Positions 11,648-62,991 of a stretch of 64,000 nt of DNA are shown here, one piece after another. Numbering within the stretch: the first letter of the stretch is position 1; each line of letters begins with the position of its first letter. The position numbers were made by a program, and so were the translations under genes. The notes under the pieces were generated by a model. The model searched no databases, was not told where the DNA came from, and was given only the letters and a program-made list of their open reading frames with translations. This DNA is from Candidatus Bathyarchaeia archaeon (GTDB taxonomy: Archaea > Thermoproteota > Bathyarchaeia > Bathyarchaeales > Bathycorpusculaceae), in contig JBEKHN010000001.1 of the NCBI GenBank assembly GCA_050012255.1, positions 320,001 through 384,000 on the forward strand, given 5' to 3'.

Positions 11648-11717
11648 AGACAGCACATTTGAGCGCGTGCTATTCATTCGATACGCACACTAGCCTTATA
11701 TTGCAGAACTAGGCAGG

Positions 11718-11972
11718 ATGTTCAGCATGAAAAAGGTTTTTGGCAAGAATATTCTAGTAGCAAAAGTTGTTGGCGAGGTGCTGTTCTTGTATGGATTTCT
11801 TGGTTGGGGCTTCGGAGTGCTAGTGGCATTGGTTCGTCCGCAATGGTTGCAATGGAGTCTGTCTCATCTGACACCGTGGCTAAGGCTGGACACCTTCACG
11901 ATTGTGTCTTTCATCGTTAGCGCCGTCGGATTTTTCATGTGGAGTTTTACCAAAGAATTAAGGTCGAGTTAG
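11718..11972 (+). CDS. Small 2-TM membrane protein, copy 1
   Basis: Two hydrophobic helices. A close paralog at 33614..33889 (-) shares SLSHLTP.LRLDTFTI, which supports coding status. Confidence 0.75.
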   Translation: MFSMKKVFGKNILVAKVVGEVLFLYGFLGWGFGVLVALVRPQWLQWSLSHLTPWLRLDTFTIVSFIVSAVGFFMWSFTKELRSS

Positions 11973-12174
11973 CGCGAGTTTTCACTTCAATTGTCTCAAA
12001 ATCGGTCTTAATCGAGGCTCAAAGCTTGAAACGCCTTGAGGCGTCTTGCCAAAGGGCTCACAAGTTAGTCTTGAGGTGTCTTGAAAGCATGTCCTTTTTG
12101 TGCTTCAAGGGGATCGATACTCGTCCAACGGTTTGTGTGGTGAATGTCCACTTAGGAAAGCAAACGGTGTTGAA

Positions 12175-12897
12175 ATGAAGGTCTATAGAATTCCGACCTT
12201 AATTCACTTTTTCGGACCTGATGGTTCAGGCAAGTCTACTCACGTTGACATATTGCTGAATCTGCTGAAGGAGCAAGAACCGCGAGTTAAGAAAATCTGG
12301 CTTCGATCTCCTCACACAGTAGCTTTCTTGCTATGGCGTTTGTTTATCAAAGTGGGTTTTTACCGCGTTGTCTCAAACCCGTTTGGTGACCCTGTCAGAC
12401 TCCCAGCGGTCAATCGAAAAGGATCGCTTCGAACTCTCTGGGCCTTAGTCGAATTCTTCAGCGTCTTGCCCTTGATCGCGCGCATTCGTTTTTTGATGTT
12501 GAGAGGCTATAAATGCATTGCCGAGAGATACGTTCTCGACACGATTGTAACGGTTGCGTACTTCATAGGAGACATGAACTTCTTGACTAGCAGAATTTCG
12601 AGCCTGCTCTTTCGTTTCATCCCCCCTGACACCTTGTTCATCTTTCTAGATTCGGATTATGGAACAGTGTTCAGAAGGCGCGCACACTTGCGTGGTAAGA
12701 AGAGGTTACGCCGGAACGATGGAAACTACGGTAGTCTTCCCAGAGCTGCTGTTGAACCACAAGAATTCATCAACTTCCAGAGAAACGCCTACAAGATACT
12801 GTCAAAATCGTTCCATGCGACAGAGATCGATACGTCTTCACGTACAATAAAAGAAACATCCAACGAGATACAGAAACTACTGGAAAGTCAGGCATGA
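12175..12897 (+). CDS. Thymidylate-kinase-like P-loop kinase
   Basis: Walker A GPDGSGKST, ERY..DT and PPD...FLD motifs. Confidence 0.8.
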   Translation: MKVYRIPTLIHFFGPDGSGKSTHVDILLNLLKEQEPRVKKIWLRSPHTVAFLLWRLFIKVGFYRVVSNPFGDPVRLPAVNRKGSLRTLWALVEFFSVLPLIARIRFLMLRGYKCIAERYVLDTIVTVAYFIGDMNFLTSRISSLLFRFIPPDTLFIFLDSDYGTVFRRRAHLRGKKRLRRNDGNYGSLPRAAVEPQEFINFQRNAYKILSKSFHATEIDTSSRTIKETSNEIQKLLESQA

Positions 12898-12988
12898 AGT
12901 CTCTGGTGAAATGAGTGGCGAGCGCAAAATCCACGTGATTTAGAGATCGCGCATGTAGTGCAATGTGAACCTTCCGCTCGCCTTGTTT

Positions 12989-14011
12989 CTAGTAGGTTTC
13001 CCGAAATGCGTGGTCCACAAGTTTTCTAAAAAAATCATTTGCAAATTTAGCATCAAACATGTTAGACAATTGTTTTGCCAAGCTCCTTCTTGTTTCGTTT
13101 TGTTTCATCATTTCTATTAGGGATTTGCCGATTGTGATGGGGTGGTACTTGTGTGGCGTCTCAAATTCCTCTCTCTGGAGTCTTGCAGCTTCAAAATCCT
13201 CTTCGCCAATTGTGTCAAGAATCTTCTTGAGAGTATCAGGGACAGTTGCATGCGCGGTACAGTGCAAAAAGGCGGTAATAGCCGCGTGCGTCTTGGTTGC
13301 ATGTTTGATGTTGCATTTCTCCGCTGTTCGGACAAAATTTTCCACGTCGATCTGTTTCAGATAATAGATGAATGTGTAGTATTCTGCGAGCGTGTACATT
13401 TGTTCTTTTACTATTGAGTGAGCGATTATGCATATTAAGTCAGCTTCGGGTTTTAAGGTTTTTACAGGTCTGTTGTTCGTCAATTTTTTCTCTATAATGG
13501 AGTCTATGAGCTTACGTTTGTCTATGTAGGTTATTGAGCTTACAGCAATTTGATCATACAAGTCAATTCCTATGCCGTTGTCTCGATCCCATATTGTTGT
13601 TGACATTGGTCCTTGCACCACTAAACTGTATCCTGCTTCTTGCATCGTCTCCACAGCCTTTGCGTATCCTGCGAAAACGATCACGTCTATGTCAACTGTT
13701 GTGGATCTGTAAGGTCTAATGGTCTTGAAGACCGCGTGCTCAATGTGCGTCTCCGATAAGATGCGTGAGACCCTGGAAATTGAGTTATCTATTCTCAAGC
13801 GTTTGATGTTTTCGCTTTCATGGATGGAGGAAAAAGTGCTCACACGGTTTCGCGGGTTCATCGTTTGCAGCCTGTCCAGATAGTAAAAAAGCATCCTGTT
13901 TTTTTCCGAGAGCTGATAAAGTCTTATCAATTCCATCTTGGTAAATGTCCTGACCGTTGGCGACGCAAATGGAGACCCTAGTAGTTGCAGAAGCTCGACC
14001 GTTGAGTTCAT
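12989..14011 (-). CDS. Nucleotidyltransferase family protein (NTP_transf_5-like)
   Basis: FKT.RPY....DIDV catalytic motif, IDLY, PEADL....AH..KE. Confidence 0.75.
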   Translation of the reverse strand: MNSTVELLQLLGSPFASPTVRTFTKMELIRLYQLSEKNRMLFYYLDRLQTMNPRNRVSTFSSIHESENIKRLRIDNSISRVSRILSETHIEHAVFKTIRPYRSTTVDIDVIVFAGYAKAVETMQEAGYSLVVQGPMSTTIWDRDNGIGIDLYDQIAVSSITYIDKRKLIDSIIEKKLTNNRPVKTLKPEADLICIIAHSIVKEQMYTLAEYYTFIYYLKQIDVENFVRTAEKCNIKHATKTHAAITAFLHCTAHATVPDTLKKILDTIGEEDFEAARLQREEFETPHKYHPITIGKSLIEMMKQNETRRSLAKQLSNMFDAKFANDFFRKLVDHAFRETY

Positions 14012-14123
14012 TTATCTCATCTTTGATTATCCACCTGTTGGTACAATCAAGTATTAGTATTATGCTCTCGAGCGCGCCACTCGAAGAGCCATAACCATAT
14101 ACTTTATACAAAACGTTTATGAA

Positions 14124-14669
14124 ATGGTCGAGGAAGGGAGTCTGATGAAATATTCCGTCAAGTTTCTTATCAGGCTGTGTGTTTTGTGGGCGACAGTATT
14201 CATTGCCCTTGATTTGGGAATTATCCGGGTCCCTTCAGTTGTTGCAAGCGATAACACTTCTTTGAAGGTTGGTGAAGCTGATGATGCCTTGCAGAGGGCT
14301 TTTATGGCTGTTTCGGAAGCTGAGAATGCCGGGGCGAACGTTTCCAGTCTGTTGGTTCAGCTAGAAGAAGCAGGTCAAATCTTGGTAGAAGCCAAATTGG
14401 CTTACAACAACGCTAATTTCAATGAAGCTACTGGTGCAGCTGACGAGTGTTCCGTATTAGCGAGTAGCGTCATAAATCAGGCTTCAACTCTGGAAAGTTC
14501 AGCTTTGATCAGTACTCGTGTCCTGTTGTGGCAAATGATTGCATTCGCTGCAGTTGGAGGATTCGTCTTCGCAATAGTCTTGTTGATGATTTGGGTTAGA
14601 TTCAGGAAGCACTACGTAAAGAACTTGAACAGCAAGAAGCCAAGGGTTGAGTTCGATGCTGAAGCTTAA
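14124..14669 (+). CDS. Hypothetical membrane-anchored helical protein
   Basis: N-terminal signal, AE.AGANVS.L helical bundle, C-terminal TM with basic tail. Confidence 0.7.
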   Translation: MVEEGSLMKYSVKFLIRLCVLWATVFIALDLGIIRVPSVVASDNTSLKVGEADDALQRAFMAVSEAENAGANVSSLLVQLEEAGQILVEAKLAYNNANFNEATGAADECSVLASSVINQASTLESSALISTRVLLWQMIAFAAVGGFVFAIVLLMIWVRFRKHYVKNLNSKKPRVEFDAEA

Positions 14670-15285: not shown

Positions 15286-17016
15286 ATGGACAAGTCAAAT
15301 GACGATCGACGGTCACGAAAGGTACAGTTGTTAGTAGTTGCGTTTTTTGTGTTCTTGGTTCTCCTAGTTGTCCAGGTTTTTCTGAGCACGAAGGACAGTA
15401 CTGACTCTTGGATCTTGGAGGGTCTTGTTCCGTACTTTATTCTGGTTACTCTAACCTATAGTGCAATTGTGTCCTATTCTTCAAACATGAAACTAATAGC
15501 TTTGATTAGTGGTTTTTATCTTGTTGCATTGAACGTTATACCAACTCTAAAATACGTTTTTGTCTATGGTTATCATGATCCGTTGGATCATTTTGGTTCT
15601 ATCCAACAAACGATAGCAGCAGGGCATATGTCCGAGGTAGGTGTTTACAGTGAGCAATATGGAGCTGCGCCCGGGCTGCATCTCCTAGTATCGGAATTGT
15701 CAATGGTGACTGGTTCGAATGCGCTTTTTGCCTTCAAATTATTCCTGGTGGTTTCTCCTTTCATTTTACCACTTGTCGTCTATCTTGTAATGAAGAGGTT
15801 GGACGCGCCCAACGGGCTTGTAAAGGCGGCTCTGTTTGCTAGCGTGATAACCGCACCAGTAACGTACATTTATACAGGCACAACTTCCGTCTATCCTCTT
15901 TATGAGATGTTCATTTGCTTTTGCTTGCTCTTCTTCTCCTTCGGACCACGTTCGCGTTCAGAATTTGTTACTGCGTTTGTGATAGGGGTAGGAATAGTGG
16001 TGTCGCATGATTCAACTTCCTTCTTTTTGTTGGTGATCGTGTCCTCGACTATGTTATTTATCATATTGGCGAGAAGAATCGGGATTTTTAAGAGAATTCC
16101 AAATCTGTCGATTCTCTTTGCTATGAGCTTTGGGACTCTCGTACTTGCGCATTTCACTTTTACTTCCAGCACTGGTAATCTCACAAGACTTTTGTCTCTG
16201 ATGGATCAGATGATTGTGAGGACACTGTTTGGGCACCAATTGGCGGCTGTCAGCTATTATCAAGGTTTTTTCAGTCTAGGTTTAATTGACAGGATAAAAA
16301 TTTTCTTGATTACTTACGGAAATGTTGCTATCCTACTCTTACTTGTTGCTGCGGCTCCTTTTGCGTTGTACAAACTTCGTAGAGCGAATGTGAAACTGCG
16401 CGGATTCTACTATAACATGATCTTTCCAGCCTTGCTGGCTTTCTTGTCATTTGCTCTGTATCTTTTTGTTAGCGGCGCTCCAGATAGAGGATTGATTTAT
16501 TTTGCTGCCTTTGCACCATTCCTTGCTGGATTAACAATATACTACCTATTTTTCTCAAGGAGATATCGCTTCGATAATCTGGTCGTGACAATCGTCGTTT
16601 TCTCTTTGATCTGCGCATGCGTTCTATCTACATTCCCTGTTCAGCCCTTGATGCCAACCGTTTCTACAACACAGGGGAGTTATTATGCTTATGACTTGAG
16701 ACAAGTCAACACCGTATATGATCGATCGCTAGTTCTGTTTGTGAGCGCACATAACTCAAGCCTAAGTATATGGACAGACGATATTCTGAGGGATCTAACA
16801 CTCGCCTTAACGAACTCAGATTTTCAGTCTTTACTTACCTCGAACCCAGAGAAAGCTGCATTGTTGCTTCTTTCAGTATCCCATGCCATTCCATCAGGCA
16901 GAAATGCGTTTAGCAATGAGCAATACATCCAGAACGCCTCGCTACAGGATGATATCCTATATTCGAATGGTCTTTCATTTGCGATGTTGAACACGAGCAA
17001 CACTGCATTCCCATAG
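15286..17016 (+). CDS. Polytopic membrane protein (possible GT-C or polymerase-like)
   Basis: About 12-13 hydrophobic segments; D...H and YxxxPG.H loop motifs; glycosylation-locus context. Confidence 0.6.
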   Translation: MDKSNDDRRSRKVQLLVVAFFVFLVLLVVQVFLSTKDSTDSWILEGLVPYFILVTLTYSAIVSYSSNMKLIALISGFYLVALNVIPTLKYVFVYGYHDPLDHFGSIQQTIAAGHMSEVGVYSEQYGAAPGLHLLVSELSMVTGSNALFAFKLFLVVSPFILPLVVYLVMKRLDAPNGLVKAALFASVITAPVTYIYTGTTSVYPLYEMFICFCLLFFSFGPRSRSEFVTAFVIGVGIVVSHDSTSFFLLVIVSSTMLFIILARRIGIFKRIPNLSILFAMSFGTLVLAHFTFTSSTGNLTRLLSLMDQMIVRTLFGHQLAAVSYYQGFFSLGLIDRIKIFLITYGNVAILLLLVAAAPFALYKLRRANVKLRGFYYNMIFPALLAFLSFALYLFVSGAPDRGLIYFAAFAPFLAGLTIYYLFFSRRYRFDNLVVTIVVFSLICACVLSTFPVQPLMPTVSTTQGSYYAYDLRQVNTVYDRSLVLFVSAHNSSLSIWTDDILRDLTLALTNSDFQSLLTSNPEKAALLLLSVSHAIPSGRNAFSNEQYIQNASLQDDILYSNGLSFAMLNTSNTAFP

Positions 17017-17439
17017 ATTTTGAGATGGTTAACTAGCGCGTTTGAATTCTAGTTCAGACATGGTATAACGCTTGCATGAAGAATTCAGAAAAAATAATAA
17101 TGTTTCATTGGTGAACGCGTCGATCCGTTAAACGACGTCCTCAAAATGCTCGCCCGCTCAGCAGTAAAGGATTTGACAGAGGTGATACATTTCTGATATA
17201 ACAAGAGGTTTTTGTGCTCATGCGCGCGGGCAGATTAAATAATTGTTTTTAATGGGAGAGCCCGGTCTCCTCTTATTGGTTAGAATGAAGCGCGCGCGAC
17301 CGACATCCCGATGACGGAATTACTATTACTTAATTTCACCCCCTTTTAAAGAGCGCGATATCCATTCAGCGACCTTAGAACCCTTAGAAACACACCTTAA
17401 ACAACATTTAGGGTCTCTAACGCGTTTAAGCGGGTTTTT

Positions 17440-17506
17440 TAAGGCGTTTAACGCAAATCCAAGGTCGGTCAACATACATTTCCTAAGGCGTTTAACGCAA
17501 ATCCAA
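17440..17506. repeat. 23-bp perfect direct repeat TAAGGCGTTTAACGCAAATCCAA x2 (17440-17462, 17484-17506)
   Basis: Read directly; 44-bp period. Confidence 0.9.
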
Positions 17507-17812
17507 CACCGAACTCAAGGACCTTAAAAACCTTAAATCCAGGCCCTAATCATGCCGTAACAGAAAAAGGCTTGCACACCCGATAGCAGCTATCGGATGA
17601 GCATGGTTCAAAGTCTAGCGGTCGGGCATGGGCCGCACGGCTTAACCAATCCTGGTAGTTTTGTGTAGCCTCTGATCTAATCCTGTCAAACCGCTCTTTT
17701 GTGGTCCACGTCATGCGTGTCGGAAAGCGCGCGCGCTAAAATGTGCGTGGGGTTATCCAAATAGCTTTTATTATAGTCTCTGCGTTGTACCCTAGTGTTA
17801 CGCATACAAAGA

Positions 17813-18000
17813 ATGATTGTTTCGGTGATAATACCCACGTACAAGAGAGTTACTGAAACGAAAAATCTTTTAGACATGATACAACGGCAAGACATGGCAC
17901 CCTATGAGATCCTCGTAGTTGATGACACGCCGTCCAGACAAATTGAAACCTTGTGCCATGACTGTAAAGAAGGACTAGCAAACAAAGGTTGCGAACTGGT
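17813..18000 (+). pseudogene. GT2 glycosyltransferase 5' fragment truncated at TAGCGCGCGCTA
   Basis: MIVSVIIPTYKR...EILVVDD is the canonical GT2 N-terminus. Similarity stops at the motif at 18000-18011. Confidence 0.8.
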
Positions 18001-18013
18001 AGCGCGCGCTAAA
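17998..18013. repeat. Palindromic junction motif GGTAGCGCGCGCTAAA (identical at 20622-20637 and 52697-52712)
   Basis: Exact 16-mer seen three times; the 12-mer core also occurs at 22978-22989. Confidence 0.95.
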
Positions 18014-18126
18014 CCTCAAATTCTCGTAACGCGCAGACAAGTTTTTCTTGAAGAAGCTTACAATCTAATCCAAGGTGCTTGCAGGTCCGTCTTGGAAACA
18101 TTCACGATATACCGACAGAGGTTGTT

Positions 18127-19317
18127 ATGCTTATGCGCATCTTCTTTCTAGGTGATGCAGAACCTAGACTCGTGCTCGGAAGCGCGGCTGCGCTTGCGAT
18201 GAAGGGCCATGATGTCTTCCATGTAAGCCCATCAAAGAATCTGTTTCCAAGTTTCGCTGAGAAAATCCAAGTTGAAGTTTATGAAGGATTGCGCGTTCCA
18301 ATAAACCGGATAGATATACCTGTTATCGGAGAGAAGAATCTTGCTGGTAGAGAAATCAGTCCGCAAGGCGTTTCTGCCTCTGTATTAACGTTGTTGAAAG
18401 AGGTTTCTCCAGATGTGATTGTATCGTATCCAGAAAGCTGGATGCTGGCTCGTTCGCTGAGCAAGAAGCTGTATATTCCGTTGGTTCTCTACTTAGTCGG
18501 CATCAGAGCACTATATCTATTTACCTACCTGCAGTTTTTTCACAAGTATTCCGACATATTGCGTGCCCCATTTTCTTGCACTTATAATGTGGCTCTCTCT
18601 GAACTATCAGATTTCACGATTGCACCAAAAAAAACCGTAAAGTTCCTCAGATATTTTGGGATTCGAAGAGTTGCTGCGCTTCGCCCTCTTTTTGCGCGCG
18701 TCAATTTCTCGTCAGAACGCGTACGCAGAGGGACTAACATCGAGCTGCCTGAGTCTTATGTACTAAGCATTGCCACAGTCAGTAGAGACAGGAACCCTGA
18801 GATAGACCTAGGCGTTTTTCGGATTGTTATGGCTATTGCACGCAAAACACCAGATGTTTTCTTCGTGGTTGTTGGCACATCGATTAGCGATTTAACGAAT
18901 CTGGGCAAAGCTTCTGCCCTGCCAGGTAATGTGCGGCTTGTGGGAAAGATATTCGACGATGATTTGCTTGCTGTTATGTACAGGAAAGCCAAGTGTGTTC
19001 TGTGTCCGATAGTGTACCCAGGGCTGTCCACTAGAGTTGATGAAGCTCTTTTCTACAAAAGACCCATTGTAATGACCAAGACGACTGCTGACTCATATGG
19101 TGCGCTTGTGGATCACGAAAATTGCATTGTCGAGCAGGATTTTGGCAAGTGGCCTGCAAAGGTGCTCCAAGTAATGGACGATAGTGAATTGAGAAAAAAA
19201 CTCGAAGTGGGTGCGGAAAGATACTACGCCGAAGTATGTTCACCGAAACGGCACGCGCTGATATTGGAACAAATACTTAACTACGTGGTTGAGTACGCAC
19301 AAGCACGAAAAAATTGA
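18127..19317 (+). CDS. Glycosyltransferase family 4 (divergent)
   Basis: GHDV, PDVIV, C-terminal EAL...PIV and GT-B pattern. Confidence 0.75.
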   Translation: MLMRIFFLGDAEPRLVLGSAAALAMKGHDVFHVSPSKNLFPSFAEKIQVEVYEGLRVPINRIDIPVIGEKNLAGREISPQGVSASVLTLLKEVSPDVIVSYPESWMLARSLSKKLYIPLVLYLVGIRALYLFTYLQFFHKYSDILRAPFSCTYNVALSELSDFTIAPKKTVKFLRYFGIRRVAALRPLFARVNFSSERVRRGTNIELPESYVLSIATVSRDRNPEIDLGVFRIVMAIARKTPDVFFVVVGTSISDLTNLGKASALPGNVRLVGKIFDDDLLAVMYRKAKCVLCPIVYPGLSTRVDEALFYKRPIVMTKTTADSYGALVDHENCIVEQDFGKWPAKVLQVMDDSELRKKLEVGAERYYAEVCSPKRHALILEQILNYVVEYAQARKN

Positions 19318-19613
19318 ACGGAAAATCAGAAAAAGGAAGAATCGGCACACCCCACGCTTCAGTAGTGATTGTGGAACACGCTAAGAAACTACTTCAACTG
19401 TTCTGATTCTAGTGCAATATGGAGAAACCATAATCCTTAACTGTTTCTTCATGAGATTCAGGAAGGAAGGAATCTTAATTGAACCAGGAGGTCATTTACT
19501 GTTTATTGCTGAAGGTGATCGCGCGTGTCATTGCTGAATGACTGCGACATTGTTGCTCGGGCGCGCGCTCCGGGCTCGAAAAAAGAGCCTTCTTGGTTGC
19601 AGGAGAGATCTAC

Positions 19614-20597
19614 ATGACGAAGTTCAAAAGCATTCTGGTCTGTGGGGGGGCGGGTTTTTACGGAAGCAGCATAGTGGACGTGCTGGTTAAAGCCGGGGCT
19701 GAAAAAGTCATTGTCGTGGACAATCTGTTTCTTGGAAATCTGGAGAACCTCCAATGGGCGCAACGTAATGGCAATTTAATCGTGTATAGGGAAGACGCGC
19801 GCTACATCTCCGTCTTGGAAAGCATAATTGAAAAAGAGAAGCCTGAGGCTGTAATCAACTGCGCTGTCAAATGCCTACCGTACGGCTTTGTCGACCCAGA
19901 GGGTGCGTTTACTGCGGGAGTTGATATTGCGGTAAATCTCTGCAATTTGTTACGCAAGAAAAAGTTTGTGAGACTGGCGCAAGTTTCTTCATCAGAATCC
20001 TATGGCTCAGCAGAATACGTGCCTATGGACGAGAAACACCCTTTTCATCCTGAGACTTCCTATGCTGCTGGAAAAGCCGCTGCTGATCTCATTGTTCTGT
20101 CCTATCGAAATATGTACAACTGCGAGGCTACGGTCATAAGACCTTTCAACATGTATGGTCCGAGGCAAAACATGGCTGCATACGCTGCTGTTATCCCTGT
20201 GACGATTCGAAGATTGCTTACTTCAGAGAAGCCCGTGTTAGAAGGAGATGGCGAGCAAACTCGGGACTTTACTTATGTAGAGGATGCCGCTGAAGGGGCG
20301 CTGGCATTGCTGGAGTGTGATGCTGCGTTGGGCAAAGTTGTGAACTTGGGAACAGGAAAAGAGACGAAAATCAAAGACCTCATTGCCATGATTTGCGAAC
20401 ATTTCGGCTATCCCTTCGAGCAAATTAAACGTGCACCAACAAGACCAGCCGATGTAAGAAGATTGTGTGCGGGAATAGAACTGGCGAAAGAACTGATTGG
20501 CTGGAAACCGAAAACCGACTTCAAAGCAGGCATCGAGAAGACATCCAAATGGTTCAGCGAAACGATGAGAATAACAAGCAGAATGACTTACTACTAA
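19614..20597 (+). CDS. NAD-dependent nucleotide-sugar epimerase/dehydratase
   Basis: GGAGFYG, SSSESYG, YAAGK, RPFNMYGPRQ, GDGEQTRDF. Confidence 0.93.
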   Translation: MTKFKSILVCGGAGFYGSSIVDVLVKAGAEKVIVVDNLFLGNLENLQWAQRNGNLIVYREDARYISVLESIIEKEKPEAVINCAVKCLPYGFVDPEGAFTAGVDIAVNLCNLLRKKKFVRLAQVSSSESYGSAEYVPMDEKHPFHPETSYAAGKAAADLIVLSYRNMYNCEATVIRPFNMYGPRQNMAAYAAVIPVTIRRLLTSEKPVLEGDGEQTRDFTYVEDAAEGALALLECDAALGKVVNLGTGKETKIKDLIAMICEHFGYPFEQIKRAPTRPADVRRLCAGIELAKELIGWKPKTDFKAGIEKTSKWFSETMRITSRMTYY

Positions 20598-20621: not shown

Positions 20622-20637
20622 GGTAGCGCGCGCTAAA
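20622..20637. repeat. Palindromic junction motif GGTAGCGCGCGCTAAA
   Basis: Exact copy of 17998-18013. Confidence 0.95.
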
Positions 20638-21704: not shown

Positions 21705-22445
21705 TTGAAGGACAAGGTTTGCTTGGTAACGGGAAGCAGTAGAGGCATTGGAAAAGCAATTGCTTTGGCACTTGCCCATGAAGGCGCAAAACTAGCAATC
21801 ACCTACCATACTCAAAAATCTGACGCGATGGAAACCATGAACGAAATTGCCAGTGTAATTCATTCTAAGCATATCACTATTAGGGCGGATGTTTCAAAAG
21901 AGGAACAAGTCAATAGAATGATTCAGGAAACAGAAAAGACTTTTGGAACCATAGACATCCTAATCAACAATGCAGGCATACATAGAGACAGCATGTCCTG
22001 GAAAATGGATAAGAAAATCTGGAAAGAAGTATTGGCCACCAATCTCATGGGCCCTTTTCTCTGCACAAAACATGTGCTGCCGATAATGAGGGAGAAGGGT
22101 TGGGGCAGAATCATAAACATATCCTCAGTAATTGGAGAAACAGGATTGATAGGAGCAAGCAACTATGCTGCGTCAAAGTCTGGTCTTGTAGGCTTCACCA
22201 AATCCGTCGCCAAAGAAGTTGCAGACAAACACATCACGGTTAACTGTGTTGCCTATGGCTACATGAATGCGGGCATGAACCTTCAGCTTGCAGAAGAAAA
22301 CAGACAGAAAGTCTTACAGAATATTCCTTTGAAACGATTTGGGACATTAGAAGAAGCGACAGGCCCAGTTCTGTTTCTATGCACTGACGCAGCCTCGTAT
22401 ATAACAGGGCAGACGATTCATGTAAACGGCGGATATTACCTCTGA
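21705..22445 (+). CDS. fabG: SDR oxidoreductase, 3-oxoacyl-ACP reductase-like
   Basis: TGSSRGIG, NNAG, NYAASK, ASYITGQTIHVNGG. Confidence 0.85.
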   Translation: MKDKVCLVTGSSRGIGKAIALALAHEGAKLAITYHTQKSDAMETMNEIASVIHSKHITIRADVSKEEQVNRMIQETEKTFGTIDILINNAGIHRDSMSWKMDKKIWKEVLATNLMGPFLCTKHVLPIMREKGWGRIINISSVIGETGLIGASNYAASKSGLVGFTKSVAKEVADKHITVNCVAYGYMNAGMNLQLAEENRQKVLQNIPLKRFGTLEEATGPVLFLCTDAASYITGQTIHVNGGYYL

Positions 22446-22470
22446 TACAAGCGATTAAAAGCGCGCTCTG

Positions 22471-22901
22471 GCTATTGACAGATTTCATGCGGACACAGAC
22501 CTTTCGGAGAAACTTTCTGACGAGGTATATACTGAATGGCTGAAGAATAGTCTAACCGGGAAATTGGCAGACTACGTTGTGGTCCCAAGAGTTGACGGCA
22601 AAGCCGCCGAGTTCTTGACTTTGAAGCAACATGCTGACAAAGTTGGAGATACTGATATTGGTTAACTGGTCCTAGCGGCGGTCGATACATCAATCCGCGG
22701 CAAGGGTATTTACGCCAACATGATATCGCTTGGGCTGAGAGTTTTGAAGTGGGAAGCAGAAATTGTGGAGACAGGCACTCAAGTCACAAACTACGCTGTC
22801 CAAAAAGCTTGGGTTCAGGTCTTAAACAAGTGACAACGACACACGTATTTCATAAATGGTTAACTAGTCGAAGAGATTATTCCTTGAAAGATCAATCTTG
22901 A
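22471..22901 (+). pseudogene. 3' half of a second WecD-like GNAT gene (internal stop 22663-22665, frameshift near 22815)
   Basis: Manual translation IDRFHADTDL...FLTLKQHA...IG*LVLAAVD..IRGKGIY...IVETGTQVTNYAVQKAW /fs/ HVFHKW aligns with the C-terminal half of 20725..21609. Confidence 0.85.
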
Positions 22902-22928
22902 CTGCTTGGACGATGAGGAAGAAGAGAC

Positions 22929-22980
22929 TTGAAGCTTGAGCATGGCGGAGTCTTGGTAACGGGCGGCGCTGGCTTCCTAG
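22929..22980 (+). pseudogene. 5' stub of an NAD-dependent epimerase, cut at TAGCGCGCGCTA
   Basis: Purine-rich leader, then TTG-KLEHGGVLVTGGAGFL, ending at the motif at 22978-22989. Confidence 0.75.
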
Positions 22981-23265
22981 CGCGCGCTACGCTATCAACA
23001 ACTCTGGCGTAGCCGTTACCAGAGGGGTGGGAGGGATCCAACGAATTGGTCTGCATACTATCTTCAAGCGCGAAGAGATGTCGAACAGCGTTGCCGTTCA
23101 ATCAAGATAGTATATATACTATTTTGAGCGCGCGCGCTAAGTTTTTGCAGCTTGCCTTCCAATCCGAGTTCGCTTCTTCGTATAGAATCAGAGTAGAGAA
23201 TTGGCGTTGCGCGTGGGAAAACTGGGACACAGATCTCTGGAAAACAAAGGAATTGGAGGGCACGA

Positions 23266-24378
23266 ATGAAGAATAAGAAACTGAAGCTTATTGAACCCGT
23301 TATCGGTAAGGAGGAAATCAGAAGAGTCAGCAAAGTCCTCTGCTCAGGTTGGCTAACCGAAGGACGGCAAACAGAAGAGTTTGAAGAACAAGTGAGGAAG
23401 TACATTGGAGTAGACTACGCGATTGCCACTACTTCCTGTACAACCGCTATTGAACTGGCCTTGAGAGCCTTAGGGATAGGTCCAGGTGACGAAGTCATAA
23501 TTCCTGACTTCACGCATCCAGCCACAGGAAACATGGTTAAGTGGGTAGGAGCTACGCCTGTACTTGTCGATGTGGACCTGTTCACGTACAACATCGTGCC
23601 CGAAGAAATAGAAAAAGCAGTGACTAGGAAAACAAGATGCATAATTCCTGTTTCTTGGGGGGGAAACCCGTTAGACTTTGAGCCACTGAATGAAATCAAA
23701 CTTAAGCACGAACTGTTAATAGTGGAAGACGCGGCGTGCAGCTTGGGTGCTGAATCCAGAGGAAAGAAAACAGGAACCATGGCAGACATTACATGCCTGA
23801 GCTTCCACCCTAGAAAAATAATAACAACGGGAGAAGGAGGAATGGCAGTGACAGATAACCCTGTCTATGCGAAACGAATACATGATCTCAAGAAGTTCGG
23901 TATGACTACTGGAAAAAAAGGAATCAGATTTACAGGCAATGGAACCAACTACAAGCTGAGCGACGTTTTGGCAGCCATTGGAATAGCTCAGATGCAAAAG
24001 ATAAACAGAATCATAGATAGACGAATTGAGCTTGCCCACACATACGACAACCTACTTTCAAAGGTTGACTCGATCAGGCCTCCACAGAAAAATGAGAACG
24101 TGAAGCACACGTATCAATCCTATGCAGTCTACATCGAAAAGGAAGGAACAAGAGACAAAGTCATCAAAGACCTTCAAAAAGAGAACATTGAAACACAAAT
24201 AGGAACGTATGCTTTGCACATGCAGCCTAGCTATGAACATGTAAAGAAAATCGGGAAATTGACAAGAGCGAAGAAATTATACAAGAACTTATTGACACTA
24301 CCCATGTGTCATTCGATGACGAAGAGAGATCAAGAACGAGTTGTCGCGAAAGTCGAGTCCTCGATGAACGAGTATTAG
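23266..24378 (+). CDS. DegT/DnrJ/EryC1/StrS sugar aminotransferase
   Basis: GPGDEVI, EDAACSLG, SFHPRKIITTGEGG, NYKLSD, LTLP. Confidence 0.95.
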   Translation: MKNKKLKLIEPVIGKEEIRRVSKVLCSGWLTEGRQTEEFEEQVRKYIGVDYAIATTSCTTAIELALRALGIGPGDEVIIPDFTHPATGNMVKWVGATPVLVDVDLFTYNIVPEEIEKAVTRKTRCIIPVSWGGNPLDFEPLNEIKLKHELLIVEDAACSLGAESRGKKTGTMADITCLSFHPRKIITTGEGGMAVTDNPVYAKRIHDLKKFGMTTGKKGIRFTGNGTNYKLSDVLAAIGIAQMQKINRIIDRRIELAHTYDNLLSKVDSIRPPQKNENVKHTYQSYAVYIEKEGTRDKVIKDLQKENIETQIGTYALHMQPSYEHVKKIGKLTRAKKLYKNLLTLPMCHSMTKRDQERVVAKVESSMNEY

Positions 24379-24933: not shown

Positions 24934-25421
24934 TCACGTAACAGTCTTTCCGACGCGAAAGATGATATGATTCTCTCTTTGTTCATCCACAGAAAACCCT
25001 TTCGTAGCCTCTCCCTCCCTTCAAACCCTTTGCCTTGGATTTCGGTGGAACAGGAGGCAACAGAATAGAGAAGATCAGCGTCGGTCCGCGCGTCCTGCAC
25101 AACCCGCTTAACATCTACTACGCCCACGGTAGGATTCGATTTCACGCGCCCGTAGTAGTACATAAGCCGCCTTTTTCCCCTGTCCAAAACCCAATAAACA
25201 TAGCCGCGCACCCTGCCCCGCTTATACTCACGCCTGTCAACAAGCCCTTGCCGCCTACACTTCAAAAGAACCATCGAAACATTCTCCCCGGAAACCCCAC
25301 GCAGCCCAGCAGCAACATCACTGCTAGTTGCTGTTCCCAACCTAAAGACGCTTTCAAGAACCCGTCTTTTCAAATCACAACGAACAAACATCACCATTTT
25401 CCTTCTCAACGGTTCCTTCAC
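24852..25421 (-). CDS. Winged helix-turn-helix DNA-binding protein
   Basis: TSSDVA...NVSMVLLK..RQGLVDR...GYVY.V..RG matches a wHTH recognition helix and wing. Confidence 0.6.
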   Translation of the reverse strand: MKEPLRRKMVMFVRCDLKRRVLESVFRLGTATSSDVAAGLRGVSGENVSMVLLKCRRQGLVDRREYKRGRVRGYVYWVLDRGKRRLMYYYGRVKSNPTVGVVDVKRVVQDARTDADLLYSVASCSTEIQGKGFEGRERLRKGFLWMNKERIISSFASERLLRECSPEVWETIRSLQEKLRLRISSSFKA

Positions 25422-48354: not shown

Positions 48355-49458
48355 ATGACAAACAAACCCGCACGAATTGTCATTCTGTGGAACGTCAAGA
48401 GAATTCTAGGCAAGATGAGGGAAATGCTGTTCTATAAGAAGCTTGACTGGAATTTCATAAGCAAACCCCTGAAAGAAGACCCCAGTGAACTCTTCAACAT
48501 CCATCGCCCCACCATTGAAGATTATGGGTTGAGGTACCGTGTTGATGGAAAGGCTAAGACCTGCTATGACTGGTGGTACTCCGCCATTCTCAAAGACACA
48601 GAAGAAAAACTCTATTTCTTCATTCTTGCCTTTCATCCAAAATGGAGCTTCTTCAGAATCATCCGAACAAACATGCGCGCGCGCGCTAAGCAGAATTCTC
48701 TTCCCAAATTTCCTGGTCTTGGATGTGACTTCCATGAGAAAATTGGTTATTCTGAACACGACGAAGCGATTGACATATGGGTTTCGAAAATCACAAAACC
48801 AGAATCTTCAAAGAGAACATTTGCGAGAGTTACTATCAAACCTTGCAAGAGCCACCTGATTTTGAAAACAGACGACATGACTCTGGATCTGAATTTTACC
48901 AGTCTAGGCATGCCTTTCTGGATAAACAGGGGACGCGAAGCGATATGCTCCCCCAAAGGTGATTCAATGAGTGGATTCTATGACGTTTCCCAAATTGAAG
49001 GTTCTCTCAAGCATCTAGCAGAGAAAACAGCAATCAGTGGTGTTGGCATTAACGAGCATCTGATGTCGTTCATCCCCCCTGAACGTTTCTGGAAAAGGAT
49101 AGACGGTATTTTCTTCTGCACCGACCAGGTCTACTGTGCAATATGGTACCTAGAAAACCAAATCGAAGCAAGACGTTTCGAGTACAAAGACGGTGCAGTT
49201 TTCATCCGAGCAACCCAAGAATACCTAATACCAATAGATCTGAATGTCGAATACCTAGAATTTGACAACCACAAACAGGTCCCTATAAAGATTCGCATCC
49301 AAGTAGATACAACAAAGGGAAAGTTGAACGCAGTGGCAGAGGCTATAGCCGAGACAGAAAAGCAGTTAGCGCTTAAGATCACAGACGGCAACTTCATTTT
49401 TGAAGATGGAAGAAGATTGAGGCTGACAAACGGTTACGGTCAGCACGCTTTACATTAG
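48355..49458 (+). CDS. Putative CrtC/tocopherol cyclase/AttH-like double beta-barrel protein
   Basis: YDWWY N-terminal motif, G.G..EH, WK, ..P....I, terminal GYG. Family assignment is by pattern only. Confidence 0.55.
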   Translation: MTNKPARIVILWNVKRILGKMREMLFYKKLDWNFISKPLKEDPSELFNIHRPTIEDYGLRYRVDGKAKTCYDWWYSAILKDTEEKLYFFILAFHPKWSFFRIIRTNMRARAKQNSLPKFPGLGCDFHEKIGYSEHDEAIDIWVSKITKPESSKRTFARVTIKPCKSHLILKTDDMTLDLNFTSLGMPFWINRGREAICSPKGDSMSGFYDVSQIEGSLKHLAEKTAISGVGINEHLMSFIPPERFWKRIDGIFFCTDQVYCAIWYLENQIEARRFEYKDGAVFIRATQEYLIPIDLNVEYLEFDNHKQVPIKIRIQVDTTKGKLNAVAEAIAETEKQLALKITDGNFIFEDGRRLRLTNGYGQHALH

Positions 49459-50646: not shown

Positions 50647-50844
50647 AAGCTGTGCCATTAAGTGAATAAAGATTGGTGTTTAGTCTTCATGATTTTCTTT
50701 ATGTTTTTTCACTTCCTATTTCATCAATTCAAAGAAAAGGTTGATGCCAATCGCGCGCGCTCGACGCCTTTTACACAAGCTGGAACTAATGAATCCTTAT
50801 AAAGAACGTTGATCTTCAGTGAAAATAATGTTCGCGTGAAAGAA

Positions 50845-52332: not shown

Positions 52333-52710
52333 GCGCGAGCTGCGCTAAGCTTTCATACTTTCCGGCGCTCAAAAAGCAAATACCTTGCGCACACCCCTTT
52401 TTATGTTTTGCATGAAACTGTCTTCGGAACCACGGGTTACTCAATCGACAATGATCTTCAGTTCGGGAATCTCCCTTTTTATTGAAGCCCCTGTCGCGCT
52501 TAGGACTGGACGAAGAACTTTCAACTGATACGTCTTTCAGACCGACGATGACTTCAGCAGGAACACATCTTGTTGACTGTGGTGCAGCTTCGACATTTAT
52601 TGGCAACGTTGAGCGACTTCCATTAACCACAGCATTCACCTGTCAAATGAAGTTGAAGAAAGGGCACGGGGAGCGTATTGAAAGGCTCAAGGAATTGGTA
52701 GCGCGCGCTA

Positions 52711-53310
52711 AATTTGAATACTCCTTCATTATTACATTATTATATTCATTATGCATACTTCTGTCAATTCATGGACTTTGATTCAATTGATACGATGATG
52801 GAGATTGGAAGCGGCTCAGGAAAACAAATCGAAGTCATAAGAAAGCTTCACCCAGATGTTTGCTTTTATGTAATTGATGTACCACCGCAACTATATGTAT
52901 GTGAACAGTACTTGTCTGTCTTGTTCCCTGATTCAGTAGTCTCGTACAGAAGAACACGAACAATGAAAATCATTCCTGAGGAACGTCAGGGAAAAGTGTT
53001 CATTATCGGAAATTGGAAAATCCCTGAATTGGCAAGTTTGAACTATGACTTATTTTGGACTAGCGCAAGCTTCCAAGAAATGGAACCTGATATTGTATTA
53101 AACTACCTGAAATATGTAAACCAACAAGTGAACAAGTATGTGTTTCTTTGTGAAGTAATGGAAGGGCAACAGCTTGCCAATGTGAAAGGTGAATACGGAG
53201 TTCTCGAACGGACAAAGCTTGAGCATTACAGAATAGGACTTCGAGATTTTAGACTTCAAGATTTGTCGAGAGCTGTCTTTCCTAGCTACATATCGCGTGC
53301 GCCACTATAG
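52711..53310 (+). pseudogene. Internal/3' fragment of a putative sugar O-methyltransferase
   Basis: EIGSGSG, YVIDVPPQL...YL...FP, DLF....SFQEM....V.NYL. The N-terminal region is absent and the fragment starts at the motif 52697-52712. Confidence 0.75.
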
Positions 53311-57086: not shown

Positions 57087-57904
57087 TCGAATCTCTTTTC
57101 CCAACATCCAACACGGCTAGGCGTGCCGAAACTAATAGTACAGCGGCGGGTATGAAAGCAATGTGCACGGTGGTATATCATTTCGGTAATGGAATCGTTG
57201 CCTGCGGTTCTCCGTGCAAGATTCTTTCCACGACTTCAAGAAAGATTTCCAAGTCCATTTTGATCCTGGCTCTTTTTTCGCCTCTGATTCCATACTCGTA
57301 TCTATCCTTGGAAGTGCAGACGTTTCCTTTGAGTGGAATGACAAGGCCCCTAATATTGAATCTCCAGTGAACTGTTAAAGTGATCTTGGCCACCGTGTAT
57401 GGGCCATGCTATGGCAATTAGTCTCTTGTACTTGGCTTGCTGTTTTCAAGCAGTCTGAGTACACTGGCGTGGTCGGTCGCTATTCTGAAGTCGAAGTTGA
57501 TTCTCTTTGATTCTTTCTGCGCGCGCTTCTTTGACACAAAGATCACCCTACTGTTGATGTCGCGTGCGCCCACAGTTCTATCAACACGTGTTCTGAAACG
57601 AGCCAAGCTAGACTTGGTGGAAATGCGCGTTCCTTCCTTCGGATTTGATTATCTTCATTGATTTAACCATAATCCACTGTCCCTGAGCAAACATATCAAT
57701 GATATTTCTATGGAGGACACAATACTCACAGGGTCATAATACACTTCGCCCCATTGACGTTTTGTTCTTCTTCTCACGTGGGCAACTAATTCGGGTGGCT
57801 GGCTCTTCCTGACTCGAGAATAACTCTTAAGAGAGCCTTTCTCTTTCAAAACTCCAAGAACAAGAACACCACGTATTCTTGACAGTTCGAGGAAGAATCA
57901 TAAA

Positions 57905-61088: not shown

Positions 61089-61214
61089 ATTAGTATGACC
61101 CGCGAACTAGCAGAACGCAAGGAAAACTGGAGAAATCCTCTATAACAAAAAACCTTATACACTTATAAACTCCAAACATTGTCGATACGTATTAAAAGAA
61201 AGGAGAAGGAAAGT

Positions 61215-61946
61215 ATGAATAAGAAAATCTTGCTCATAGCATTGCTTCTAGTCTTAGCTTCGCCAATGGTAGCTTTTGCAGCACAGGACCAGATCAGAGT
61301 CATTCCTGTAGGCAGTTCCGATACAGGAATGGCAAGAATCACAACAAGCTCCGCAAGCCTTGAGATCTTCGTGACGAGCAGCAACAAGAACAAAACCAAT
61401 GTCTGGTTATTCATTGCATTAGACGACGCTACCTACAACGGCCTGACAAGCATCACCCTATCAGGAACACAAGGCCCGGCAACTTTAACCAAGAGCAGCT
61501 TCACAAGCATCGCCCTCTCAGGCGGAGGAAAGGTTCCACTAACAAACGATGGCAACTACACTGGCGACGGACACACTTACCCAGGATGCGCTGACAACGC
61601 GCGCTGGACCGTTAGCGCGATTATTTCGCAGATGCAACAAGTCTACAGCGCAGCTAACTCCATACACTACGGCCTCGTGTACGGTTTTGACAAGATCACA
61701 ACAGTGCCACAGGCTTTCACCGTCACAGTCAACGCGCCACACATCAATGTTCTGGTACTTGCTCAAGGACTATCCGAAGGCGCAACCACTGCCAGCACAA
61801 TAACAACGCTAACAGTGATTCCTCTCGACAGCAACAGCCCATTCAGCGGCAGCACGCTCGTGGTTCCAGAAGTTGGCACGATCCTTGCGGCCATAGCGTC
61901 CCTTGGCGCGTTCGGACTGTACATATCCAAGCGTCGGAAAAAGTGA
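61215..61946 (+). CDS. Surface protein with VPE-CTERM sorting signal
   Basis: Signal peptide MNKKILL..AFA; C-terminal VVPEVG+TM+KRRKK. Confidence 0.8.
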   Translation: MNKKILLIALLLVLASPMVAFAAQDQIRVIPVGSSDTGMARITTSSASLEIFVTSSNKNKTNVWLFIALDDATYNGLTSITLSGTQGPATLTKSSFTSIALSGGGKVPLTNDGNYTGDGHTYPGCADNARWTVSAIISQMQQVYSAANSIHYGLVYGFDKITTVPQAFTVTVNAPHINVLVLAQGLSEGATTASTITTLTVIPLDSNSPFSGSTLVVPEVGTILAAIASLGAFGLYISKRRKK

Positions 61947-61993
61947 AGCACAGGCTACTATGCATTAAAGGGTAAATAAGACTGAAGCAGCTC

Positions 61994-62011
61994 GGCGCAC
62001 GCAAGTGCGCC
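61994..62011 (+). other. GNRA-tetraloop hairpin GGCGCAC-GCAA-GTGCGCC downstream of the VPE-CTERM gene
   Basis: Perfect 7-bp stem; function (mRNA stabiliser or terminator) unknown. Confidence 0.5.
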
Positions 62012-62073
62012 AAACGAGCCTATTTCTCAATAGCTTATATTGAACTTTTGGTGAAGATATACTTCTGGGGAAA

Positions 62074-62712
62074 GTGCTATTGGTACAAGAATCTGCACAG
62101 CAGAGATTGGTAGAAGCAATCCTCCAAATTACCAAAGAAAAAAAACCAGCAACCGTAAACCAACTCGTCGAACAAGCACAGACGCAGATCCCTTCTGCCT
62201 CTCAGAAGGGGATCCTTGAGACAGTAATCAGCCTCCATGAAGAAGGCAAGTCAAGAATCAACGCGCAACTGCTGCCTTACCCGAAAACGTCATCTTATTT
62301 CAAAAGCAACAAAGCCCTTTGGTTTTGGATCACGCTTGCGGCAACCGCGGCAGCAATCATCAGCGCCTTCACGATACCCGAAGACGCTTACCCTCTTGTT
62401 GTCATCCGCTACTTTTTCGGTGCGCTGCTAGTACTGTGGCTTCCGGGCTATGCATTCATCAAAGCACTATTCCCTTTAACTCTTCCCATCAAGGCCTCCG
62501 AAAAAACCCTTGACAATATAGAACGAGCAGCACTCAGCGCAGGCATGAGCCTCGCTCTCGTGCCAATCATTGGACTTCTCCTCAACTATACGCCATGGGG
62601 AATACGCCTCACTCCAGTGACTCTAAGCTTAGCTGTACTAACGCTTGCATTCGCAGTTGCGGGTTTGGTGAGAGAAGAACGCGCTCAGAAACCAGCGACA
62701 GACGTACACTGA
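62074..62712 (+). CDS. DUF1616-like membrane domain with N-terminal wHTH-like segment
   Basis: LPGYA...LFP, IER.ALS.G.SLA.VP..GL.LNYTPWGI. Confidence 0.8.
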   Translation: MLLVQESAQQRLVEAILQITKEKKPATVNQLVEQAQTQIPSASQKGILETVISLHEEGKSRINAQLLPYPKTSSYFKSNKALWFWITLAATAAAIISAFTIPEDAYPLVVIRYFFGALLVLWLPGYAFIKALFPLTLPIKASEKTLDNIERAALSAGMSLALVPIIGLLLNYTPWGIRLTPVTLSLAVLTLAFAVAGLVREERAQKPATDVH

Positions 62713-62991
62713 CAGTAGACACTGCACGCGCGCCTGAAATGGAGAAAACCACCAGATAAACCTATTTTTCGCGTCTGAAGGCAGCGCGACACTAGCTTCT
62801 TTTTTCCATGCCTACCCCTGGACAGCGTGAGCGCTAAACCCAAATTGCGCGCTCTAAACGGTTGCTTGTCAGCTCTTGGCTTATTCCTTTGTTAGCTGAA
62901 GTAGAAGGAAGTTCTATAGAAAACCTATAGTATAGTCATTCATATGTCTTTATAAAAGCGGTCAGTCCTCACCTTATTTGGTTGTGATAAA

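Follow-up and report, generated by a model that had tools for sequence, protein, structure and literature searches.

Why should a short palindrome of alternating G and C bases recur, copy after copy, between the genes of an archaeal surface-polysaccharide locus? The locus is a 64-kb stretch of a Candidatus Bathyarchaeia archaeon genome (contig JBEKHN010000001.1, positions 320,001 to 384,000; "the window" below means this whole stretch), and a first-pass annotation of its letters had proposed that the palindrome marks the seams of a mosaic, as a recombination or transposition target through which surface DNA is excised, captured, and rejoined. We find that the motif is a property of a whole genus, that homology between sister species ends at it unusually often, and that transposable elements insert into it. 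Our preferred explanation, which we would put at about 60%, is that in one genus the flexible genome carries the motif as a junction sequence, neutral and quick to turn over, and that an IS5-like transposon family uses it as its preferred landing site. The transposase would recognize the center of the run, and repeated insertion, excision, and adjacent rearrangement at such motif pads may help to build gene-by-gene mosaics, the window's glycan island among them.

A palindrome iterated across one genus

The source genome (G000; 2.351 Mb in 38 contigs, 48% G+C, with the window at contig C1:320001-384000) was compared with 10 congeners, making 11 genomes of the genus, and with 20 others from 19 genera of the same family or order. 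The motif core is GCGCGCGC, 8 to 10 alternating G/C bases flanked mostly by A...T or TA...TA. The k-mer check suggested by the first-pass annotation came out positive across the genome: no 8-mer is more over-represented than GCGCGCGC, counted 868 times on both strands where an order-2 Markov model gives 50 (17-fold), and no 10-mer more than TAGCGCGCGC (163 against 2.1, 78-fold; same model). Some 10-mers unrelated to the motif are over-represented as well, namely, GTACTAGTAC (34 copies, 45-fold), GGGGGGAGGG/CCCTCCCCCC (36 copies, 35-fold), and CCCCCTAGGG (25 copies, 28-fold). Alternating G/C runs of at least 8 bases number 393 in the source genome, and with 373 of these outside the window, the notion that the motif is special to this locus had to be given up.

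Run lengths point to a discrete sequence. The counts for lengths 6 to 12 are 517, 171, 201, 123, 63, 2, and 2, a bump at lengths 8 to 10 followed by a collapse at 11, and a bump of the same shape is seen in the sister genome G001; the five other alternating dinucleotide types decay smoothly. The bump therefore identifies a discrete motif and not a microsatellite, and it rules out the stepwise slippage of a dinucleotide repeat, for which smooth decay would be expected. An A precedes the run in 66% of cases and a T follows it in 59%, with no conservation beyond 2 bases on either side, and the flanks are unique at 296 of the 393 sites.

The motif is concentrated between genes, as the first-pass annotation had it. 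This holds for 337 of the 393 runs (56 are genic) in a genome of which 80% was called coding, for 321 of 393 with a second gene set (82 to 86% intergenic), and for 17 of the 20 runs in the window. Densities per kb of spacer are 0.68 for tandem, 0.62 for divergent, and 0.84 for convergent gene pairs; this similarity across orientations, together with the lack of a sharp distance peak relative to gene starts, rules out a promoter or terminator signal. The sites cluster, with 103 neighbor pairs less than 500 bp apart against 53 ± 6 under random intergenic placement. Across the genus, AGCGCGCGCT is present in all 11 genomes at 7 to 114 copies (114 in G001, 82 in G009, 56 in G008, and 39 in G004; 0 to 4 for the reversed-pattern control), and the 20 other genomes hold 0 to 1. 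The motif is, in short, a genus-specific iterated G/C palindrome, distributed genome-wide and mostly intergenic.

The motif is enriched where homology between sister species ends

The sister genome, G001, is that of a congener 93% identical to the source; it is closed (2,346,764 bp), and its reciprocal best hits with G000 number 1,464, with a median amino-acid identity of 94%. The sister comparison covers these two genomes and, in part (400 kb), a third, G007. Each site was aligned to the sister genome with 300 nt on either side, seams being taken as BLAST end points and an end being counted when it fell within 12 nt of the site. From G000 to G001, alignments ended at 94 of 321 intergenic motif sites (29%) and spanned 11.5%; from G001 to G000, they ended at 120 of 391 (31%) and spanned 8%. 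At random intergenic controls, the ends numbered 57 of 1,000, 101 of 1,500, and 86 of 1,500 (5.7 to 6.7%) with 51 to 55% spanned, and for control positions shifted within the same spacers they numbered 12 of 302 (4%) with 35% spanned. Homology ends exactly at the motif five to seven times oftener than at controls.

Gene order gives the same picture. Spacers with conserved adjacency contain the motif in 23 of 621 cases (0.23 runs per kb), those at a synteny break in 21 of 100 (0.91), those with one side lacking an orthologue in 78 of 460 (0.70), and those with an orthologue on neither side in 90 of 348 (1.23), so that motif density is 3 to 5 times higher where synteny breaks and in accessory DNA. 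The breakpoint check that the first-pass annotation had called for thus favors the motif by both measures. Among the block ends of a whole-genome alignment, 63 of 677 had a run of at least 8 bases within 15 nt and 41 more had a run of 6 to 7 bases, compared with 2 to 6 and 6 to 14, respectively, when the ends were shifted by 100 to 200 nt. The motif is strongly enriched at seams but is present at about 9% of them (63/677).

A dedicated site-specific system like that of integrons, pdif modules, or HIP elements, in which gene units are excised, captured, and rejoined by an unseen recombinase acting through crossovers between copies of the motif, would account for this enrichment and for the way in which motif copies part single genes or gene pairs at 17 to 24.4 kb of the window. 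It would also suit one locus that holds three contents between the same anchors in three genomes: a 9-base run at G000:C5:77180, 1.47 kb with two genes at G001:2242331-2243801, and 2.4 kb of other DNA at G007:C3:157497-159894 (one of the two G001 genes is located elsewhere in G007, at C5:89304-90098). Such a system predicts, however, a motif copy on both sides of the segment in the genome that keeps it. In 10 colinear cases with both flanks aligned, G001 holds 64 to 3,006 bp of single-copy DNA, some of it with whole genes, where G000 has only the run, and the G001 junctions are without a run in 8 of the 10; in one-sided cases, the run is absent at the G001 breakpoint in 55 of 82. These run-free sister junctions led us to reject crossovers between copies of the motif as the chief origin of the seams, and they do not support the integron-like recombination of the first-pass proposal. 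Genes are not cut, and a search of the 31 genomes, which did not extend to tyrosine and serine recombinases, found no Y1 transposase and no reverse transcriptase. We consider a shuffling system of this kind very unlikely.

Where alignments span the motif, its 8-mers are identical at 10 of 37 and 14 of 32 sites, against 388 of 771 and 420 of 832 random intergenic 8-mers. The motif is thus kept no better than random sequence, with no sign of purifying selection. The differences between species comprise single substitutions, changes of one unit in length at some sites, changes from GC to (GC)5 and from CG to (CG)4, and runs that stand in place of 2 to 13 unrelated bases; new copies are short insertions or replacements and not products of stepwise repeat slippage. 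At two sites a 17-base patch had seemed to stand in for the motif, but the two were a single locus viewed from two genomes.

These observations bear on the idea of a selected functional site, be it a protein-binding or regulatory element, a Z-DNA insulator, or a methylation-linked palindrome spread by biased repair as proposed for HIP1. The taxon-specific hyper-abundance of a GC palindrome does resemble HIP1, and for one site (G001:1628175) a gain through two substitutions in the direction of the motif would be a possible reading, yet most differences between the species are indels or replacements, and orthologous copies were kept in 24 of 69 cases against about 50% of random 8-mers. Convergent, divergent, and tandem spacers have equal densities, and the motif is rarest in conserved syntenic spacers. 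The source genome encodes two C5 cytosine DNA methyltransferases, but PF00145 is found in only 3 of the 31 genomes and not in G001, with its 114 copies. The methylase co-occurrence that the first-pass annotation proposed to look for is therefore missing for the C5 type, which also rules out an origin through C5 methylation and short-patch repair. A selected function strikes us as most improbable. The two methyltransferase genes, at C7:4931-5887 and C6:37304-38281, are themselves rare among relatives, where 3 of 31 genomes have any.

An IS5-like family inserts into the motif

[quoted passage not shown] The source genome contains 35 inverted TIR pairs, mostly 160 to 310 bp long (130 to 310 bp for MITEs of the family as a whole), non-coding, and of several subfamilies, which identifies them as MITEs. 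Exactly 6+6 alternating G/C bases flank 18 of the 35, and TA stands on both sides of 10. In several contigs of the source genome (e.g., C8, C9, C15, C16, C20, and C25), a MITE inverted repeat lies within about 130 bp of the contig end and the break falls about 100 bp inside it, so such repeats limit assembly.

The same TIRs bound a 1,085-bp element on G000 contig C24 with degraded DUF772 and DDE_Tnp_1 remnants. The autonomous form is about 1.09 kb long and carries one DUF772+DDE_Tnp_1 transposase between TIRs of 24 to 27 nt. TIR-bounded transposase copies lie at G001 389077-390161, where a single frameshift occurs at a homopolymer, and at G003 C204 1033-2127, where the 328-amino-acid (aa) gene is intact; G009 has an uninterrupted 329-aa reading frame, and G001 has in addition a 40%-identical relative with similar ends. 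The first-pass statement that no recombinase is visible is thus true of the window, but a transposase with matching TIRs exists elsewhere, degraded in G000 and intact in G003 and G009. The G003 protein scores 73.6 bits against PF01609 (cut-off 23) and 41.5 bits against PF05598 (cut-off 23.1) but falls below every NCBIfam cut-off (IS1182, 140.4 against 270 bits; IS5_4, 99.1 against 140), and we therefore call the element IS5-like and do not assign it to a curated group. Gene-carrying derivatives also occur, one of about 1.75 kb (1.75 to 1.76 kb) with a MEDS/HTH gene between the TIRs and one of 872 bp with a 134-aa open reading frame (ORF).

TIR-family matches number 58 in G000, 32 in G001, 19 in G003, 10 in G007, 3 in G010, 2 in G006, and 1 each in G009 and G002; there were none in G004, G008, and G005. 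The IS5-like transposase was found in 5 of the 10 congeners, and no DDE_Tnp_1 match of any kind was found in the other five (G004, G008, G002, G005, and G010). It cannot be that all motif sites are pieces of MITEs: this is ruled out by the 296 unique flanks, by the lack of conservation past 2 bases, and by the absence of inverted repeats from the window's multi-site spacers.

Comparison of the two sister genomes yielded the following filled and empty sites:

G000 C3:43049-43223, filled by a MITE (TA-GCGCGC...GCGCGC-TA); empty in G001, TAGCGCGCGCTA
G001 430606-430810, filled by a MITE; empty in G000, A-GCGCACGC-A
G001 1936368-1936501, filled by a MITE; empty in G000, A-CGCGCGC-T
G001, filled by the 1.75-kb cargo element; empty in G000, AGCGCGCGCT

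An empty site has a run of 8 (or 7) bases where a filled one has flanks of about 6+6, which implies a 4-bp GCGC target duplication. G007 served as the outgroup, since identity is 93.35% between G000 and G001 and 91.5 to 91.7% with G007 (142 one-kb pieces). The MEDS/HTH cargo element was inserted into a motif that both G000 and G007 keep, and the G000 MITE into a place where G001 has the motif and G007 a same-length TATCGCGAGCTA. At the G001 430606 site, G007 holds a different MITE subfamily between the same flanks, with G000 empty, and at 1936368 it has A-CGCGC-T. One de novo gain could also be polarized, a TA(GC)5TA at G000 C3:19942 that is absent from G001 and G007. We favor a course in which elements enter a run that is already present and duplicate 4 bp, by which 8 bases become 6+6; the filled and empty pairs and the two outgroup-polarized insertions into a pre-existing motif bear out the part of the first-pass proposal that called the motif a transposition target.

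Several points weigh against our preferred explanation. The loci are few, 16 having been resolved three ways, with 2 polarized insertions and 1 polarized gain. The 4-bp duplication is deduced from run lengths, as the register within a repeat target cannot be read directly, and some elements are flanked by 6+8, 6+7, or 10+4 bases. The conserved GCGCGC beside the variable ATG/TAG/TGG could equally be the true tip of the transposon. The run is found at only about 9% of seams, so the motif is not a general cause of mosaicism. In the window itself, the family is represented by only one MITE and one solo TIR, the other 18 runs standing alone in unique DNA with no inverted repeats found beside them, and no insertion or excision polymorphism was seen in the contigs of the source sample alone. 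Gene calls were made with our own simple caller, and genomes of one genus are non-independent samples.

What could write the run

If elements land in runs that are already there, something must have written the runs. The candidate writers are end-joined excision scars of IS5-like elements and filler from double-strand-break repair. The two share a possible route, an end-joining operon at G000 C10:11524-14557 that encodes a LigD-type polymerase (PolDom; 11524-12261), Ku (12246-13166), and an ATP-dependent ligase in fusion with a 3'-phosphoesterase (13163-14557). The domain scores (PF02735, 140.9 bits; TIGR02778, 263.8 bits against a cut-off of 214.7; PF01068+PF04679+PF13298 for the ligase) identify it as a complete archaeo-prokaryotic nonhomologous end-joining operon. 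Ku (PF02735) is present in G000 and 7 of the 10 congeners and in 1 of the 20 other genomes (G016); the LigD polymerase (TIGR02778) is present in G000 and 8 of 10 congeners and, among the 20 others, reaches the curated cut-off only in G016, a match in G012 (E = 5.1e-4, 19.5 bits) lying far below it. End joining is described as uncommon in archaea in passages of two published accounts (10.1101/2023.09.30.560322, PMC4797286). The operon would allow either excision scars or break-repair filler, and we regard it as a lead and not as a finding.

In its purest form, the first route would make every solo run the scar of an excised IS5-like element or MITE with GCGCGC tips, end-joined with about 4 to 5 bases kept from each tip and with no other generator at work. 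GCGCGC and the TA flanks are common to element ends and motif, the cut-off at 10 bases would fit the joining of two 6-base tips that overlap by 2 bases or more, changes from GC to (GC)5 and from CG to (CG)4 occur, and the one polarized gain is a TA(GC)5TA in virgin DNA. Scars would require end joining, for which the genus has Ku and LigD, and would not be conserved, as the motif is not. The distribution of the family fits less well, however. No DDE_Tnp_1 match was found in G004 (93% complete, with 39 copies of the 10-mer), G008 (56 copies), G002, G005, or G010; TIR matches are zero in G004, G008, and G005, and G009 has 82 motif copies but one TIR. No trace of a TIR is seen at solo sites farther out than 2 bases on either side, and both polarized loci that combine element and motif are insertions into an older motif, not excisions. 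Because the motif occurs in genomes without the TIR family or DDE_Tnp_1, an origin from scars of this family only is doubtful, and something else may write the run.

In the second route, PolDom-Ku-LigD would itself write the run at double-strand-break junctions, perhaps through rounds of slip-synthesis on self-complementary GC microhomology that stop once the duplex has become stable enough for ligation, and transposons would merely exploit the sites. This would agree with the presence of the motif in some genomes without transposases, with the discrete run length, with the distribution of Ku and the LigD polymerase given above, and with the colinear sites at which 2 bases to 3 kb of unique DNA have given way to the motif and the sister lacks a run (8 of 10). 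Yet G016 has the full operon and only 1 copy of the 10-mer (control, 1), the correlation between operon and motif amounts to about one phylogenetic event, and in G005 and G006 (83% and 65% complete), where no Ku was found, the motif is present at low density. We know of no end-joining polymerase reported to write a fixed alternating filler, which also counts against this route, and we think it rather doubtful.

A broader version would have the genus write a fixed (GC)4-5 palindrome at its DNA junctions, through either PolDom-Ku-LigD or GCGCGC-tipped excision, with the resulting break-and-join tags serving as landing pads for IS5-like MITEs and gene-carrying derivatives and the whole amounting to an integrase-free, self-reinforcing shuffling of cassettes by which surface-glycan islands are built and rebuilt. 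We hold such a scheme to be unlikely. A further candidate, "healing" by reverse transcriptase, is ruled out, as PF00078 was found in 0 of the 31 genomes.

Motif copies and genes of the window

Runs of at least 8 bases number 20 in the window, where the genome mean would give 10.7. This roughly doubled density follows from the window being a 64-kb accessory surface-glycan island. Of the three that are not intergenic, the one at 41307 overlaps the last codons of a gene and those at 6999 and 48675 fall within called ORFs. The exact TAGCGCGCGCTA reported by the first-pass annotation is indeed present at 18000, 20624, 22978, and 52699, and it appeared in none of 100 dinucleotide-preserving shuffles; three of the copies lie within GGTAGCGCGCGCTAAA, whose occurrences at 17998, 20622, and 52697 are the only three in the genome. 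The 30 variants listed with it divide evenly, 15 containing an alternating G/C run of at least 8 bases and 15 being runs of 6 to 7 bases or looser look-alikes, and the degenerate form TAGCRCGYGCTA adds one site only, at 26782. The runs and family elements are as follows (no strand assigned unless given):

6999-7006: 8-base run, within the M14 peptidase-like gene 6669-9158 and beyond the range covered by the first-pass annotation
17290-17298: 9-base alternating G/C run, the first of three in the 1-kb spacer 17016-18079
17727-17736: 10-base run AGCGCGCGCGCT
18000-18011: exact TAGCGCGCGCTA within GGTAGCGCGCGCTAAA, spacer before the GT1 gene 18079-19317
19561-19568: 8-base run, spacer before the epimerase gene 19593-20597
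20624-20635: exact TAGCGCGCGCTA within GGTAGCGCGCGCTAAA, spacer between the epimerase and GNAT-like genes
22978-22989: exact TAGCGCGCGCTA, spacer 22445-23266
23128-23137: 10-base run AGCGCGCGCGCT, spacer before the DegT gene
25557-25593, minus strand: solo TIR of the MITE family (..CCTGTTCCTAAATTCG..), where read depth is raised and several contigs diverge, as at a repeat
32162-32170: 9-base run directly after the 1741-aa surface protein gene
38485-38492: 8-base run TGCGCGCGCTCATGA, spacer 38229-38687
38623-38630: 8-base run TGCGCGCGCTCATGA, spacer 38229-38687
39196-39204: 9-base run, spacer 39121-39243
41307-41476: MITE of about 170 bp, arms 41309-41332/41448-41471 (24 nt, 96% complementary), flanks A-GCGCGCGC ... 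GCGCGC-TA
41537-41544: 8-base run AGCGCGCGCTAG, spacer 41328-41601
43805-43814: 10-base run, spacer 43631-44576
44147-44156: 10-base run, spacer 43631-44576
48675-48686: 12-base run inside the called ORF 48355-49458, which has no Pfam family
50752-50760: 9-base run, spacer before the radical-SAM gene
52699-52710: exact TAGCGCGCGCTA within GGTAGCGCGCGCTAAA, spacer before the gene 52714-53310
57519-57526: 8-base run, spacer before the exosortase-like gene

The window codes for a surface-polysaccharide and cell-surface island. Its sugar genes include a pyruvyl transferase, GT1 and GT2 glycosyltransferases, an epimerase/dehydratase, a short-chain dehydrogenase (SDR), and a DegT aminotransferase, and they are accompanied by genes for a flippase, a hexapeptide transferase, a methyltransferase, a polyprenyl synthase, UbiA, and an exosortase-like protein and by large surface proteins (a 1741-aa LamG/FG-GAP protein and a PKD/dockerin protein). 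The genes match their Pfam models from one end to the other (epimerase 1-332 of 332, DegT 3-359 of 360, SDR 5-235 of 236), so the motif units do not cut through genes, contrary to the first-pass claim. The sole exception is the GT2 gene 40522-41328, whose stop codon is supplied by the left inverted repeat of the MITE (..CCTAAATTC..); the insertion probably replaced its last codons.

The whole window is accessory DNA. It has almost no orthologues in the sister species (only two blastn blocks of at least 200 bp against G001), and a DNA search with the part of the window from 10 to 50 kb in five congeners returned scattered gene-sized matches only, because the island is accessory DNA. The closest named relative of a window protein belongs to an uncultured Bathyarchaeia archaeon (82% identity), and no Rfam families or tRNAs were found in the window. 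A 704-aa exosortase/archaeosortase-like membrane protein (PF09721; 57905-60019) adjoins the PKD/dockerin and LamG/FG-GAP proteins, a neighborhood that suggests a sorting system serving the surface proteins of the island. Two small membrane proteins (about 84 to 91 aa) are encoded by diverged paralogous genes at 11718-11972 (plus strand) and 33614-33889 (minus strand), which stand inverted 21.7 kb apart and bracket the glycosylation genes, with a degenerate motif copy before each (11662 and 33935) and a homologue at about 26.8 to 27.1 kb in G001; a 234-bp joint on "opposite strands" in the read table is this pair of genes and not a repeat element. Elsewhere in the source genome, part of a gene for an approximately 400-aa protein is present in three copies (C2:39566-40491, C16:8885-9810, and C1:26585-27495; about 87% identity over about 0.9 kb), with what by eye is a dockerin-like N-terminal repeat, and is the longest multi-copy repeat except for one 2.3-kb pair.

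A single public sequencing run, from a peat metagenome that is possibly the source sample, covers the stretch in the form of contigs. Positions 25001-42285 are covered by a single contig that shows no difference, and the assembly is not contradicted. Contig depth rises at the solo repeat (25557-25593) and at the MITE (41307-41476), as expected for repeats, and no alternative joint at a motif is listed in the contigs of this one run.

Significance

Bathyarchaeia are abundant and mostly uncultured archaea of sediment and peat, and their modes of genome change are almost unknown. As a sequence mark, the motif is simple: it flags about one homology break in ten between sister species and gives a practical means of finding mobile gene units and recent insertions or deletions in metagenome-assembled genomes; in the open-access literature searched, supplements excluded, we found no earlier description of it. 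The intact 328-aa transposase, the 25-nt repeat, and the 8-base target together make a defined substrate for a first biochemistry of transposition in this group. If end joining does write the run, it would be a new kind of repair signature.

Relation to known systems

The motif recalls HIP1 (GCGATCGC) of cyanobacteria, likewise an 8-base GC-rich palindrome that is hugely over-represented in one lineage and implicated in rearrangements. HIP1 is common inside genes, and proposals for it include spread by substitution and a tie to methyltransferases. Here, by contrast, 82 to 86% of copies are intergenic (56 of 393 are genic), new copies arise by indel or replacement, and the occurrence of C5 methyltransferase (PF00145; 3 of 31 genomes), the type examined, does not follow that of the motif. 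Integron attC sites and pdif modules are similar in that short sites stand between single-gene units in an accessory gene array. A cassette would have its site at both junctions, however, and the sister junctions are run-free in 55 of 82 and 8 of 10 cases; there is no evidence of site-by-site crossing over, the sites are only 8 to 10 bases long, and the linked enzyme is a DDE transposase, no search for integrases having been made.

Repetitive extragenic palindromes (REPs) and the mosaic elements built from them (BIMEs), with their RAYT transposases or IS110/IS1111-type inserters, provide another parallel, a taxon-specific iterated extragenic palindrome that is the landing site of an insertion sequence. 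The motif differs in having 8 to 10 bases, no stem-loop, and no conserved flanks, and its inserter is a DDE enzyme of IS5-like type; a REP/RAYT system as such is ruled out, since the Y1 (HUH, RAYT-type) transposase PF01797 was found in 0 of the 31 genomes with a search that was positive in 6 of 14 known genomes. Excision footprints and Ku/LigD junctions resemble the motif as short, non-conserved insertions or replacements at novel junctions in a host with PolDom-Ku-LigD. To our knowledge, however, a fixed alternating filler of set length has been described for neither, and some genomes here carry the motif without a transposase.

The IS5/IS1182 superfamily, with PIF/Harbinger elements and Tourist MITEs as its eukaryotic relatives, has the same DUF772+DDE_Tnp_1 transposase, TIRs, and many short non-coding derivatives that share those TIRs. 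It also has a short palindromic target duplication, which here, as implied by the run lengths, would be GCGC; IS5 itself duplicates 4 bp, typically CTAG. What sets the present family apart is its scores below the NCBIfam cut-offs, the passenger genes of some of its members, and a target that is itself an iterated alternating G/C palindrome of 8 to 10 bases present in hundreds of copies.

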